From an uncultured delta proteobacterium (GTDB lineage Bacteria > Desulfobacterota > Desulfobacteria > Desulfobacterales > B30-G6): a stretch of DNA of 64,000 nucleotides. The notes below the pieces were generated by a model. That model was not told the DNA's origin and made no database searches. It saw only the letters and a list, made by a program, of their open reading frames with translations. Made by a program: the position numbers and the translations under genes. Shown one piece after another: positions 3,150 through 48,165 of the stretch (the first letter of the stretch is position 1; each line of letters begins with the position of its first letter). The stretch spans positions 448,001-512,000 of the forward strand of contig CAWGLD010000004.1 in the NCBI GenBank assembly GCA_963823335.1, read 5' to 3'.

Positions 3150-5444
3150 ATGACCACAGCGAAACTAATTAGCCAGCACCACGACCCTGGCTGCAGCGGT
3201 TTGGGGCTGCTCAGTACAGCGTTGCCGCTGTTGCTCTTCATCGGCCTTTGCTATCTCTGGCCAGAAGTGGTGCGCGGGCACGTTTACCAAATCCAATGGC
3301 CCTGGATACCTAGCCTGGACCTGTACCTGCGATTTCGTCTCGACGGCCTGAGCCTGCTCTTTTGCCTGATCGTCACCGGGGCCGGTTTTTTCGTCAGCCT
3401 TTACTCTTCTTCATATATGGCCGGTCATCCACATGTGGGCCGCTATTTTGCCTTCCTGCACGCCTTCATGCTCTCCATGCTGGGGATCGTTACAGCCGAC
3501 AATCTGCTGCTGCTCTTCGTCTTTTGGGAGGGCACCACGGTCTTTTCCTATCTGCTTATCGGGTTCGACCACGAAGCGGACACCGCTCGTGACAATGCCC
3601 GTCAGGCCATTTTAATCACTAGTGCCGGCGGCTTAGCATTGCTCATCGGTATCCTGCTTTTGAAAATCGCGGGTGTCTCCTTCACCATCAGCCATTGGGT
3701 AGGGGCTGGCGATCAGATCCGTCAGCATGCCTTGTATCCTGCCATTTTTACAGCTGTATTGTTGGGCGCTATCACTAAGTCGGCTCAGTTCCCCTTTCAT
3801 TTCTGGCTACCCAATGCCATGAGCGCCCCCACGCCCGTCAGCGCCTTTTTACATGCGGCCACCATGGTCAAGGCCGGCATCTATCTGTTGATGCGCTTTC
3901 ACCCGCTGCTGGGGGGTACGCAACTGTGGATGACGACCCTGGTCCTTATCGGTGGCATCACGGCCCTGTGGGGCGCTGTGCAGGCCTTGGCCCCATCCGA
4001 CCTGAAACGGGTCCTGGCCTACACCACCATGATGGCATTGGGCATCCTGACCATGTTCCTCGGCGGCGAGACAGCGCCGGCCCTCACGGCAGCCACCACC
4101 TTTCTGCTGGTCCACGCCCTATACAAGGCCGCCCTCTTTCTGGCTGCCGGCAGCATCGACCACCAAACCGGCACCCGCCTTTTGGATCACCTCGGCGGAC
4201 TCTGGCGTGCCATGCCCCTGACCGCTCTGGCCGTGGCCGCCGCAACCATGTCCATGGCTGGATTTCCACTGTTTTTCGGATTCATCGGCAAGGAGATCAT
4301 GTACAAGGGGGCGCTGACCGAAACGGCCTATCCCGTTTTTGCCACCACCATCGCCCTGCTTTCCAACGCGTTGATGACCGGAGTGGCCGGGACCATCCTG
4401 CTCGGCGTGTTTTTCGGCAGACGCCCGACCGCCCTGGCGGCGGTCCGCGAAGTGCCCTGGACCATGCGATTCGGTCCCAGCATCATGGGCGGCCTGACCA
4501 TCCTGTTCGGCATTTTCCCCTGGTGGGTTTCCGCCAATCTGGTTCAGCCCGCCGTGCTGGCCTTTCACCCGACCAGGGAAGAGATCCACCTGAAACTCTT
4601 TCACGGATTCAACACACCGCTACTGCTCAGTCTCATCACCCTGACGCTGGGCGGACTGATCTATTTAACGCGGCAACACATGCGTATATGGGTCGGTACA
4701 CTGAGACAACGGCTGCCGGTCACATCCCAGCGCACCTATCAATTCGGCCTCGACCTGTTCATCCGAACAGCGCAAACGGTAACCAGCGGTCTGCAAAACG
4801 GATCACTGACCGCTTACCTGGCCATCATTGTGCTTTGCATGGCGGCCGCCGTGGGATGGCCCTGGTTCAGCAGCGCCAAAGCTGCCCTGAGCATACCTGT
4901 ACTGGACGGCCCCATGGCCGCCGTGGGTCTGGTATTGATGATTTTAGCCGCTACCACCGTGGTGCTCACCGCTAAAGGGCGTCTGGCCGCCATCTGCGGT
5001 TTAGGTGGTGTGGGGGCGGGAGTGGCCCTGATTTTTCTAGTATTCGGGGCGCCTGACCTTGCTCTGACGCAACTCATGGTAGAAACGCTGACCGTGATTT
5101 TCGTCTCATTGGTATTGCCACGGCTGCCCACTCTGAATCGTGAGAAAAGAAGGCCGCTGATGCGCCGAATTATGACCGCAGGCCTCTGTGCGGCCGTGGG
5201 CCTGCTGGTCACCTCCCTGCTGATGGGCGTCGTGCAGCCCCCCCTGGATCGCAGCCTGACCGCTTTTTACGAGTCTAACAGCTACCTGGCGGCCCACGGC
5301 CGCAACATCGTCAATGTCATCCTGGTCGACTTTAGGGCCCTGGACACGCTGGGCGAAATCACTGTTGTCGTACTGGCAGCCTGGGCGGGCATCGCCCTGA
5401 TCCGCAAACCCAAGGAGCGCCATCCGTGCAATCCGTCATCCTGA
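3150..5444 (+). CDS. mrpA: Mrp/Mnh Na+/H+ antiporter subunit A
   Basis: TKSAQFPFHFWLPNAMSAPTPVSAFLHAATMVKAG; C-terminal HGRNIVNVILVDFRALDTLGE. Confidence 0.93.
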   Translation: MTTAKLISQHHDPGCSGLGLLSTALPLLLFIGLCYLWPEVVRGHVYQIQWPWIPSLDLYLRFRLDGLSLLFCLIVTGAGFFVSLYSSSYMAGHPHVGRYFAFLHAFMLSMLGIVTADNLLLLFVFWEGTTVFSYLLIGFDHEADTARDNARQAILITSAGGLALLIGILLLKIAGVSFTISHWVGAGDQIRQHALYPAIFTAVLLGAITKSAQFPFHFWLPNAMSAPTPVSAFLHAATMVKAGIYLLMRFHPLLGGTQLWMTTLVLIGGITALWGAVQALAPSDLKRVLAYTTMMALGILTMFLGGETAPALTAATTFLLVHALYKAALFLAAGSIDHQTGTRLLDHLGGLWRAMPLTALAVAAATMSMAGFPLFFGFIGKEIMYKGALTETAYPVFATTIALLSNALMTGVAGTILLGVFFGRRPTALAAVREVPWTMRFGPSIMGGLTILFGIFPWWVSANLVQPAVLAFHPTREEIHLKLFHGFNTPLLLSLITLTLGGLIYLTRQHMRIWVGTLRQRLPVTSQRTYQFGLDLFIRTAQTVTSGLQNGSLTAYLAIIVLCMAAAVGWPWFSSAKAALSIPVLDGPMAAVGLVLMILAATTVVLTAKGRLAAICGLGGVGAGVALIFLVFGAPDLALTQLMVETLTVIFVSLVLPRLPTLNREKRRPLMRRIMTAGLCAAVGLLVTSLLMGVVQPPLDRSLTAFYESNSYLAAHGRNIVNVILVDFRALDTLGEITVVVLAAWAGIALIRKPKERHPCNPSS

Positions 5445-44889: not shown

Positions 44890-44955
44890 TCGAACAAGCT
44901 GACAATTTTTTATTGACACCTGTGGAAATTACCGTTAAATGGTGTTGTTTTACAC

Positions 44956-45031
44956 GGGCCGTTAACTCAGTCGGTAGAGTATCTGCCTTTTAAGCAGAGA
45001 GTCGCGCGTTCGAGCCGCGCACGGCCCACCA
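44956..45031 (+). tRNA. tRNA-Lys (TTT)
   Basis: 76-nt cloverleaf; TCTGC-CTTTTAA-GCAGA; CCA end; TTGACA at 44913 upstream. Confidence 0.96.
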
Positions 45032-45051
45032 ACACAATAGCAAACCATCAC

Positions 45052-45129
45052 GACCCCATCGTCTAGCCTGGTCCAGGACACCGGCCTTTCACGCCGGCAA
45101 CGGGGGTTCAAATCCCCCTGGGGTCGCCA
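45052..45129 (+). tRNA. tRNA-Glu (TTC)
   Basis: Cloverleaf; CCGGC-CTTTCAC-GCCGG; GGTTCAAATCC; CCA end. Confidence 0.96.
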
Positions 45130-45523
45130 CCCAATTAAAACAGGGACTTAGAAGAAATTCTGAGCCCCTGTTATTTTTTGTGTTTATCCAATACCCAACA
45201 ACAAATCCCTATATCAGGCCATTTGTTGTGTTTCCCGGCGAAATATATAAATACAAACCCGAAACCTGTTTCTGTTCATAATCTTGTGGCATCAACCATT
45301 AATCCTGATTTGCTTTAAAGAGTTCGATACTTTGCTGTTTTTGAATTTAGGGACTGGGATTCTTGATTGACCATCATCTATCACATCTTTTTCCGTCTGA
45401 CCAAATGCGATATAACCCCCAAATATTTGAAAATACTCACTTAATTTATTGATAGCATTTTCAATGTTTCTTGTTTCAGATAACCAAATTTGGGTATTAA
45501 GGTTAAGAATTCAGATAAATACA

Positions 45524-46427
45524 TTAAGTTTGAAATCTACATCCACAGTTATGACAAATGTATGTTGGCTTTACAAGCAAGAGGAGGAGGCCGATGGGAA
45601 AAAGCATAATCATTAATCCTATGAGCCAACACCCCCTTACACCGAATGCTTGTCCACCACATCTGGGGCAAGAAATCCAATTAAGCGACGAGTATAACGT
45701 CTAAGTTTGCGACCATCTTGGGTGCGCCGTTTCTTTCTTCCTTTGCGATGTGGCGAGATCATTTCAATGCCACGTTCTTCGCTAAGCGTCTGATCAAGTT
45801 TGTCACTATCGTAAGCTTTATCCCCGATAATTTTATCAGGGGCATATTTGGTAAAACCACTGTCAATAGTGGCCTCGACCAGTTTCACCTCATGGGGCGA
45901 AGCGCTTTCAATGTGAGCGGCGATAGGAAGACCAGAAGCGTCTGCGATGGCCATGATCTTGGTGCCTTTGCCGCGTTTCGTCTTGCCGACAGCAAGACCC
46001 CTTTTTTTGCCGGCGCGAAGCTGCCGTCTATGAACGCCTCACGAATGTCAATTTTACCGCGTTCATATAGGTCTTCTGCCAGCTCTTGGACAACCCGTTG
46101 GAAAATTCCTTGTCGCACCCATTGCTGGAACCGCCTATGGCATGTCTGGTATGGCGGATACCGTGGGGGCAGATCTTTCCAAGGTGCGCCGGTTCGAAGA
46201 ATCCACATTATTCCATTCAATACTTCCCGTGGATCCCTTGGATGGCGGCCTCTCGGGTCTTTTATAGGGGTTAAGGATGAAATCACAGGCTCTATCCGGT
46301 CCCATTGTTCGTTTGTGAGTTCCATCCTAATTCTATTACATATTCAGTCCCTTATGTCTAGATTTATTTTGAGATAGCTTGTAAGTAAATCTTGACTTTG
46401 ATTCTGATAAATGTTTCGTTTTTTCAT
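45524..46427 (-). pseudogene. IS-disrupted 67-aa zinc-ribbon membrane protein (LITAF/BRI3-like)
   Basis: 5' part 46427-46382 and 3' part 45681-45524 join in frame across the duplicated TA. Confidence 0.8.
45684..46381 (-). mobile_element. IS5-family element, 3'-truncated; orfA 45885-46325 and orfB in the -1 frame
   Basis: ELTNEQW, WILRTGAPWKDLP..Y..YQTCHRRF..W, IDGSF, GDKAYDS; A7G slip site near 46001-46008; one TIR at 46367-46381. Confidence 0.9.
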
Positions 46428-46471
46428 AGGTGAAACTCCTTTTGTTTTGTAGCTGCTTCATTGCAGACTAC

Positions 46472-46486
46472 GCATCAATTATGCCA
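46472..46486 (-). promoter_or_regulatory. Sigma54-type promoter of the disrupted small gene
   Basis: TGGCATAATTGATGC: GG-N10-GC, ~45 bp above ATG 46427. Confidence 0.55.
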
Positions 46487-46856
46487 CAGGCCAAAACCTG
46501 ATGGCTCATTAAACAGGGGAGTTTCACCTTTATTATTTTGGAATTGGATAATTACGGGGGAATTTAAGGCTTGAAAACCCCTATCGATAGAGTTGTGGAG
46601 ACTCCGCGAGCTACACCCTAGCCGGACACTACTGACCAAGTCTGGTACAAAGAACACAAGATATTTAGGCTATCAAGTGATTAAAAAGTTGAGGGCTCAA
46701 CAGAAGAATCTTGCAGATTAATATTTTTGCTATTCAAGGTATAATTGCCCAATTTCGTTTGAGATTCGGGGATTATAATGGAAACTTGTTTTTCAACACC
46801 TCAAATAAACGGCTTGGAATCACTCCGGGCCTTTTCCTTTTTTAAAATGACGGATA

Positions 46857-47276
46857 TCAGCAGGCTGCCTCGCTTTGTTGCGATGTAAAGTCTTCGTCGA
46901 ACATGAAAGCAGGCATATTTCTTCCAACTTGAATATCAAACTGTGTCGCCAATGCTACCGGTTTTTTACGCCGATCCTCCTCAATGAGATCTACGATTTG
47001 ATGTCTTTGAAAAGTTTTCAGTGTTCGAGACAAATTGCTCTTATTTCTTCCGGATATTCTGGATAACTCATCTATCGATGCTGGTTTTTCTTTTTCTATA
47101 AGTTTTAATAGTTCGATATTTCTTGTGCTCAAAACCTGCATACAAGTCTCTACAGACTCAAACCAAATCATGGGGGCATTTTTTTGAGGTTTATATTTCC
47201 CACAGGCTATTGCCTTTGTATATTTTTGAAATACTTTAAATGGCATTATACCAACCTTGACAATCTTCGTTCTCAT
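46857..47276 (-). CDS. HTH antitoxin-like regulator (HVO_A0114-like)
   Basis: WFES, VLS..NIELL..I....PASI.EL...SGR..SNLSRTL. Confidence 0.8.
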   Translation of the reverse strand: MRTKIVKVGIMPFKVFQKYTKAIACGKYKPQKNAPMIWFESVETCMQVLSTRNIELLKLIEKEKPASIDELSRISGRNKSNLSRTLKTFQRHQIVDLIEEDRRKKPVALATQFDIQVGRNMPAFMFDEDFTSQQSEAAC

Positions 47277-47299
47277 TTTTGCCTCCCCTTCAGAACTTC

Positions 47300-47662
47300 C
47301 TATCCATATACTATCTCGTTCACAGCCTTCCAAAAATCGTCCAGAAGTTGGCTGGCTGATGAAAATAAATAGCGCTCAACTTTTTCTTGTTTGTGAACGT
47401 GGTCCCAAGTGATGATACGGCCAGTGTATTTTTTCGGTCGACGCCCTCTTTTTGGTATCGCATGTGCGTTATCGAAACCTAAAACCCGTGTGTTGTTTCG
47501 ATCATGCAACGTTAAAGAGTAGTTGATGCCGTGGGGACGGAATTTATCTTTGTCCACTTTACAAGCTTCAAGTTTAACCCAGTAACCGTTGTCGCACCAA
47601 AACGAACAGCCATTTAAGTCAAGTAAGGTTAGCAGCTCGGCATCTTCTGCTTCGTATTTCAT
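47300..47662 (-). CDS. Putative toxin (DUF6516/TumE-like)
   Basis: RPHGINYSLTLHD...RVLGFDNAH...WDH.H...LL.DFW; paired with the HTH gene. Confidence 0.75.
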   Translation of the reverse strand: MKYEAEDAELLTLLDLNGCSFWCDNGYWVKLEACKVDKDKFRPHGINYSLTLHDRNNTRVLGFDNAHAIPKRGRRPKKYTGRIITWDHVHKQEKVERYLFSSASQLLDDFWKAVNEIVYG

Positions 47663-47674
47663 TTGTATGCCCTT

Positions 47675-47703
47675 AAGTTATCAACGGATCACAACCTTGT
47701 CAA
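47675..47703 (-). promoter_or_regulatory. Promoter of the TA-like operon with an imperfect palindrome
   Basis: TTGACA-17-TAACTT on the minus strand. Confidence 0.55.
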
Positions 47704-48165
47704 CCAAAATATAATATATTTTTAAATAGTAAAGGTTATATTAATAATTTCATAAGCATTTTTTAAACTAACTTCAGTAAAAAAACAAGCATTTTTACAG
47801 TTTAGAATAGCGGACACTTCCCGGACACTGATTGCCATGCTTTTAATGTACTTTCATGACTCTCATGCATTTCGTTAATTAAAATATATCAATATATTAG
47901 ATATTTACAGGGGAGGCGCGGAGGGTCTTTCACGCCGGCAACGGGGGTTCAAATCCCCCTGGGGTCGCCACCCAATTAAAACAGGGACTTAGAAGAAATT
48001 CTGAGCCCCTGTTTTATTTTGGTATTTCTTAGGTCCCCCTATTAGTCCCCCCAAGCACAACAAGAATGAAGGTAACAATCCACACTCGTCACCACTTGAC
48101 CTTATCGGCCATATTTGACATCTTGTTCCACCCTACCCCGTTCGCTACATTCAAAAGGAGCATGA

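Follow-up and report, generated by a model that had tools for sequence, protein, structure and literature searches.

An apparent zinc-ribbon gene interrupted by an insertion sequence is very probably a stack of unrelated fragments in the remains of a tRNA-Glu island

The interval described here lies in a 64,000-nt stretch of DNA from an uncultured delta proteobacterium (hereafter, the window), and very probably consists of three unrelated fragments stacked on a decayed tRNA-Glu island: an IS110-family element, an IS5-family element inserted in it, and a BRI3-like gene beheaded by a later deletion (Table 1). A first-pass annotation of this DNA had proposed a single hidden gene of 67 codons for a LITAF/BRI3-like zinc-ribbon membrane protein, which removal of a clean IS5 insertion would restore. 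Judged from its sequence, this 67-aa gene appears to be an accidental in-frame juxtaposition of an IS110 transposase start and a BRI3-like remnant. The main value of the analysis is this correction, in that an attractive "hidden gene" obtained by removing an insertion sequence proved to be an IS110 transposase start joined on paper to an unrelated fragment. In such reconstructions, both termini of the insertion sequence and a second copy of each flank should be checked first. The locus itself is ordinary genomic wreckage, made up of IS debris and a beheaded copy of a small-protein family already covered by Pfam.

Table 1 Features of the island remnant and the interval (positions in the window).
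Feature	Position	Strand	Remarks
tRNA-Glu(UUC), island integration site	45052..45129	+	
98-nt direct repeat, left copy	45083..45180	+	tRNA-Glu 3' half and downstream terminator-like hairpin
5'-truncated small BRI3-like gene remnant	45524..45682	-	52 codons and stop; zinc ribbon and hydrophobic hairpin
IS5-family element, 3'-truncated	45684..46381	-	698 nt of ~837
IS110-family left end	46382..46620	-	193-nt non-coding leader, Shine-Dalgarno site and first 15 transposase codons MKKRNIYQNQSQDLL
Sigma54-like motif TGGCATAATTGATGC	46472..46486	-	inside IS110 leader
HVO_A0114-type winged-helix protein	46857-47333	-	PF25212 4.2e-20
TumE-family toxin	47300-47662	-	PF20126 1e-08, 35.5 bits vs cut-off 23.4
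98-nt direct repeat, right copy	47924..48021	+	97% identity; bounds 2.7-kb island remnant

The region was used as query against the genome to which the window belongs (G000; 11 contigs, 93.9% completeness). Positions 46620-46382 were found to be identical (100% over 239 nt) to a second locus in the same genome (G000:C7:217274-217512), where the same ATG opens a 398-aa frame beginning MKKRNIYQNQSQDLLSLFEAAG. This frame (L003:1524-2717) matched DEDD_Tnp_IS110 (1.2e-18) and Transposase_20 (7.6e-10), which assigns it to the IS110 family; against NCBIfam NF033542, 'IS110 family RNA-guided transposase', it scored 129.4 bits (1.7e-37), just below the cut-off of 140. The 239 nt therefore correspond to the left end of the full C7 element, of which the window keeps only this part, the transposase frame being broken by the IS5 sequence at a TA, at codons 15/16. 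The minus-strand ATG from which the hidden gene was said to start (46427-46425), its Shine-Dalgarno site AAAAGGAG (46443-46436) and the frame MKKRNIYQNQSQDLL, reaching 46383, are all present in the sequence as quoted; from the identity to C7 it follows that this start codon, this Shine-Dalgarno site and the proposed 'sigma54 promoter' are parts of the IS110 left end. The GG-N10-GC motif taken for that promoter does exist, but at chance level: the window has 12 instances of TGGC-N8-TGC where 10.07 would be expected, a count equalled or exceeded in 30 of 100 shuffles.

The assignment of the intervening element to the IS5 family held, with matches to Pfam DUF4096 (5.7e-28) and DDE_Tnp_1 (3.2e-09) and to NCBIfam NF033580 (transpos_IS5_3), whereas the claim of a clean insertion did not, because the copy is truncated. 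A full copy on contig C1 (L002; ~837 nt) has inverted-repeat ends CAACC...GGTTG with a TA flanking each. The window copy aligns with positions 2203-1501 of L002 at 95.6% identity over 705 aligned nt; the alignment ends at 45684, and the L002 copy continues to ~1361. Position 45684, proposed as the IS end, is thus 140 nt short of the right end, and the missing part takes in the final 43 transposase codons as well as the right inverted repeat. In the full copy, orfB continues for 43 more residues (RRYTRRWKVERLF), which the window orfB loses after RRYTRR, reaching position 214 of 258 in the NF033580 profile. The left terminus is retained, at the TA of the IS110 gene. The window copy shares with two-frame IS5-family elements the DUF4096 and DDE domains and an A-run between the frames, but differs in lacking the right inverted repeat and the 43 codons; both the terminal inverted repeats and the TA flanks are present in the full C1 copy. 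The truncation also removes the Glu that follows the retained YTRR, which we take to be that of the IS4/IS5 YREK signature. With its right inverted repeat, 43 codons and this Glu lost, the window copy would be immobile on its own.

The elements of the proposed reconstruction are all present in the sequence. CTTA occurs at both boundaries (46385-46382 and 45685-45682), a 52-codon minus-strand frame runs from 45682 to 45527, ending CHNCGCRFQT before a stop at 45526-45524, and taking out 45684-46381 together with one TA does yield a frame of 67 codons. The matching CTTA and the in-frame join would be expected of one gene split by a clean insertion that duplicated CTTA (or TA) and whose precise excision restores the gene; the 19 residues that the joined frame places before the first Cys are also a plausible length, since 4 of the 42 homologues described below have 7-30 residues there. 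The prior probability that two unrelated frames join in frame is itself about 1 in 3, and higher if the junction bases to be removed are freely chosen. We give a split gene of this kind practically no credence. Its N-terminal half is identical over 239 nt, non-coding leader included, to an IS110 transposase locus, and the IS5 copy between the halves lacks its right end. Nor do the CTTA tetranucleotides constitute a target duplication: in the right-hand one two of four bases (C45685 and T45684) are internal to IS5, and the left-hand one is native to the IS110 transposase gene, the uninterrupted copy reading gatttactTAgtc at that point, with IS5 sitting at its TA. The N-terminal peptide MKKRNIYQNQSQDLL resembles none of the 42 homologues of the C-terminal half (best ungapped match, 5/15 identities). 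The two halves match unrelated proteins, a finding that the first-pass annotation had itself named as counting against its gene, and the intact alleles it had suggested looking for in related genomes were not found in the genomes of 60 relatives or in scans of contigs.

Since the IS5 copy stops 140 nt short of its right end, 45684|45683 is read as a deletion breakpoint inside the insertion sequence. The order of events that we infer would begin with an island holding an IS110-family element. An IS5-family element would then have entered at the TA at codons 15/16 of the IS110 transposase gene, and a later deletion would have taken the last 140 nt of IS5, the remainder of IS110, some island DNA and the 5' end of the BRI3-like gene. 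For both the IS110 remainder and the IS5 3' end that the window lacks, the genome has a single occurrence, at the intact copy, and no other copy of the IS5 end adjoins IS110 sequence; hence there is no reciprocal rearrangement product in the genome, which makes a simple deletion the most economical reading. With the genome in 11 contigs at 93.9% completeness, unassembled sequence could still contain the missing IS parts.

Public sequence data bear on one of the two junctions. A 177-nt contig from public run X5, which may be the source sample, spans 45579-45755 with zero differences, so the breakpoint is not peculiar to this assembly. No piece bridging the IS110|IS5 junction (46382/46381) was present among the contig pieces listed. 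Nor was there a piece skipping the insertion sequence among them; parts of the stretch have no cover, and this result is neutral either way. No public run holds half of the sampled words.

We then consider the 52-codon frame itself. In its encoded sequence, C5-x2-C8 and C43-x2-C46 flank a 20-residue hydrophobic stretch (residues 18-37) with a central FPIG motif. A full HMMER search (1.84 billion representatives) gave 42 matches with E<=1e-3. Ten also reach E<=1e-10, and the best (3.3e-19) has 74% identity over residues 2-51. All four Cys are kept in 41 of these 42 homologues. F28, C43 and C46 are invariant in the alignment, and C5, P6, C8, P29, G31 and L32 are at least 90% conserved. The homologues come from several independent sources and lie in their own open frames, which have plausible starts. 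In 30 of the 42 the first Cys is preceded by >30 residues, the module being C-terminal to other domains; in 8, with <=6 residues ahead of that Cys, the module stands alone, typically starting M-[AG]-W-[VIL]-S-C-P. The N-terminal partner domains among 43 aligned sequences were Zn_ribbon_3 (16 sequences), DZR (10) and GYF_2 (5).

The remnant keeps the complete conserved C-terminal module. Its frame opens after a TAG inside the IS5 sequence, and upstream of the first CxxC there is neither a Shine-Dalgarno site nor an in-frame ATG, GTG or TTG; the first in-frame start would yield a product of only 29 aa, without that CxxC. We therefore read it, from these sequence features, as a dead, 5'-truncated pseudogene. 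A long N-terminal part of its gene was probably lost: in the four best homologues 61-105 residues precede the first Cys, where the sequence is xNW/DKW-LSCP, like the NWISCP of the window. The 5' loss amounts to at least 2 codons, and the closest relative is 71-74% identical.

A chance open frame with no gene behind it would account for the missing start codon, and also for several null results: the frame is unique in its own genome, a six-frame search of 60 relatives' genomes found no convincing match to the 52-aa piece, and word-index protein searches with this piece, at near and longer lengths, returned nothing. The best hit of the six-frame search (G043, 2.1e-4) was rejected, as it covers residues 16-51 only, in overlapping GC-rich frames and without the first CxxC. 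Coincidence is extremely improbable, in our judgment, in the face of the 42 HMMER matches, of a set of conserved columns that coincides exactly with the four Cys plus the FPxGL core, and of a confident model of the module (pLDDT 78.4). The opposite proposal, that the remnant is still translated and working, would call for translation to begin at a non-canonical codon, such as the ATT two codons in, or to shift into this frame from the truncated IS5 orfB. The full conserved module is present and stand-alone relatives are merely 51-54 aa long; moreover, the orfB frame crosses the junction and runs to 45637, overlapping the remnant in another frame. This difference of frame tells against a read-through from orfB, as the lack of an ATG, GTG, TTG or Shine-Dalgarno site before the first CxxC tells against an independent start, and no run recorded as RNA holds the stretch. 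We regard a working remnant as very unlikely, if slightly less so than a chance frame. The pseudogene is real but minor: the bacterial branch to which it belongs is already covered by Pfam, and the window copy is non-functional.

The family placement was evaluated by profile comparison. The remnant scored 15.5 bits (E 0.025) against Pfam BRI3 (PF10164, Brain protein I3 family), below the 25.9-bit cut-off, with residues 5-50 lying on profile positions 60-106. The same profile matched 26 of the 43 aligned sequences at E<=0.01, and the cut-off was passed by three of the 23 that were singly checked: P0037 (34.9 bits), P0006 (28.3) and P0028 (26.1). The remnant is related to all three (3.1e-04, 7.9e-13 and 3.2e-06, respectively). 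The C-terminal half of the BRI3 profile (~58-106) has the same CxxC/hydrophobic/CxxC layout; the remnant differs from the family in being a 5'-truncated pseudogene that scores below the cut-off, and the bacterial members, which stand alone at 51-54 aa or are fused to bacterial zinc-ribbon or GYF_2 domains, lack profile region 1-57. The LITAF profile (PF10601) did not match the remnant at E<=1, and matched 1 of the 43 aligned sequences at E<=0.01 (best, 0.0014). The proposed LITAF/BRI3 membership was thus borne out as regards the CxxC-hairpin-CxxC architecture and the relation to proteins filed under BRI3, but not as regards LITAF. The remnant is best stated, on these profile and sequence comparisons, as a putative divergent relative of a bacterial BRI3-type module.

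As leads only, the nearest clusters in a protein atlas (score 0.95, 187 shared features) hold 55-aa proteins, 80% of them carrying BRI3, and the next clusters are small and phage-rich, one with a LITAF-like annotation on 11% of its members. The atlas clusters label small prokaryotic BRI3 members 'DUF2367'. A literature search on DUF2367 and PF10164 found no study of bacterial BRI3 members, and one on LITAF, bacteriophage and membrane found, by titles among the matches listed, no phage or bacterial LITAF-like protein.

Genome contigs were searched for related loci as well. A single homologue (P0002) used as query found none, and a 7-sequence alignment found 11, of which 8 were examined; two candidates (L032 and L034) were rejected as family members, sharing the hydrophobic core alone. 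Viral contigs yielded 0 relatives from 62 pattern matches, and of the 28 loci found in metagenome contigs, the closest was 71% identical and none was an intact allele. The neighbourhoods of the relatives differ from one to another, with an IS3-type transposase, serine recombinases, SNase, Band_7 and DUF1579 among them, so gene context gives no function. On a Paraglaciecola sp. contig, positions 3968-4153 (L030) hold an intact stand-alone member of ~53 aa, starting MSVLSCP; judged by eye from the translations, it is flanked by a resolvase-like 185-aa ORF and a serine-recombinase-like 547-aa ORF.

The module of ~50 residues can be described by the pattern W-[LIV]-S-C-P-x-C ... G-G-R-G-C, followed by a kinked FPxGLL hydrophobic hairpin and K-P-T-Y-x-C-x-x-C-G. 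An AlphaFold model, built with the 43-row alignment and referred to above for its pLDDT, placed short strands around both knuckles and a helix-kink-helix between them (a two-residue bridge at 3-4, a strand at 11-14, a helix at 16-26, the kink, a helix at 30-36, and strands at 40-43 and 49-51). In fold searches against the PDB and BFVD nothing reached E<=0.001; the matches were generic zinc ribbons only, at E>=0.1, and the BFVD ranking had a LITAF protein in 9th place (E 0.34, probability 0.25).

In a study of its structure and topology, LITAF is described as a eukaryotic protein with a zinc-ribbon fold, in which two Cys pairs lie around a 22-residue hydrophobic region that inserts in the membrane without crossing it; its zinc site has five beta-strands, three N-terminal and two C-terminal (PMC5142333). 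The module model likewise has a kinked helix-helix hairpin between two knuckles. The module differs in having only 9 residues between the first CxxC and the hydrophobic stretch, and for this reason no clear counterpart of the three N-terminal LITAF strands can be seen in it. By analogy and from the model, the two CxxC knuckles of intact relatives would bind one zinc, and their 20-residue FPxG-kinked segment would dip into the membrane as a re-entrant hairpin. Such a hairpin would hold the protein, or whichever N-terminal domains it carries (zinc ribbons or GYF_2), at the cytoplasmic face of the membrane. More tentatively, and at somewhat below even confidence, we suggest that the remnant belongs to an unstudied bacterial family whose module, standing alone or tethering zinc-ribbon/GYF_2 domains and often found near mobile-element genes, may be the prokaryotic equivalent of the monotopic zinc-ribbon anchor of eukaryotic BRI3/LITAF proteins. 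If the two are truly homologous, the origin of this membrane-anchoring device would be pushed back into bacteria; the dead window copy adds only a sequence.

The island-borne position and the toxin-antitoxin neighbour described in the first-pass annotation were both confirmed. The tRNA-Glu gene lies together with a tRNA-Lys gene at 44956-45129, and the two 98-nt tRNA-Glu repeats (Table 1) enclose DNA of low GC content (0.35-0.42, with 0.47-0.52 in the IS5 segment), compared with ~0.49-0.58 in the left flank. No integrase gene was found: the ORFs of at least 100 aa in 45181-47923 are IS5 frames, one antisense frame included, and the TumE/winged-helix pair. An integrase-sized ORF being missing, the island is regarded as a remnant. 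It contains only the BRI3-like remnant, the two IS fragments and the TumE/HVO_A0114 winged-helix pair, which adjoins the BRI3-like interval and looks like a toxin-antitoxin-like pair. The TumE gene overlaps the downstream winged-helix gene by 34 nt. An Rfam search over 44900-48100 returned only the two tRNAs and sub-threshold tRNA-like matches. Between the stop of the remnant and the left repeat (45292-45523, minus strand), the DNA is of low GC content and its reading frames are all short and broken. This part of the island exists elsewhere, since 45316-45556 is present, with few differences, on contigs from three public metagenome runs (X1, X2 and X5).

The IS110 leader was examined in its own right. 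The minus-strand stretch 46428-46620, identical in L003 1331-1523, has a predicted minimum free energy of -57.1 kcal/mol (z = -3.58), and 0 of 200 shuffles were as good; it had no Rfam match. As NCBIfam calls this type of transposase 'RNA-guided', the 193-nt leader may encode the guide (bridge) RNA of the element, and in the window it is an orphan, without its transposase. From 46620 downward, the opening 32-54 nt of the IS110 left end also recur at several other genomic sites (94-100% identity), where the remainder of the element is absent. The recurrences lie at G000:C1:1248160-1248213, C1:117080-117133, C1:1771563-1771594, C4:170875-170906 and C4:534580-534662, one of them having only 77% identity over 82 nt. 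These recurring stretches could be solo ends of the element or members of a short repeat family.
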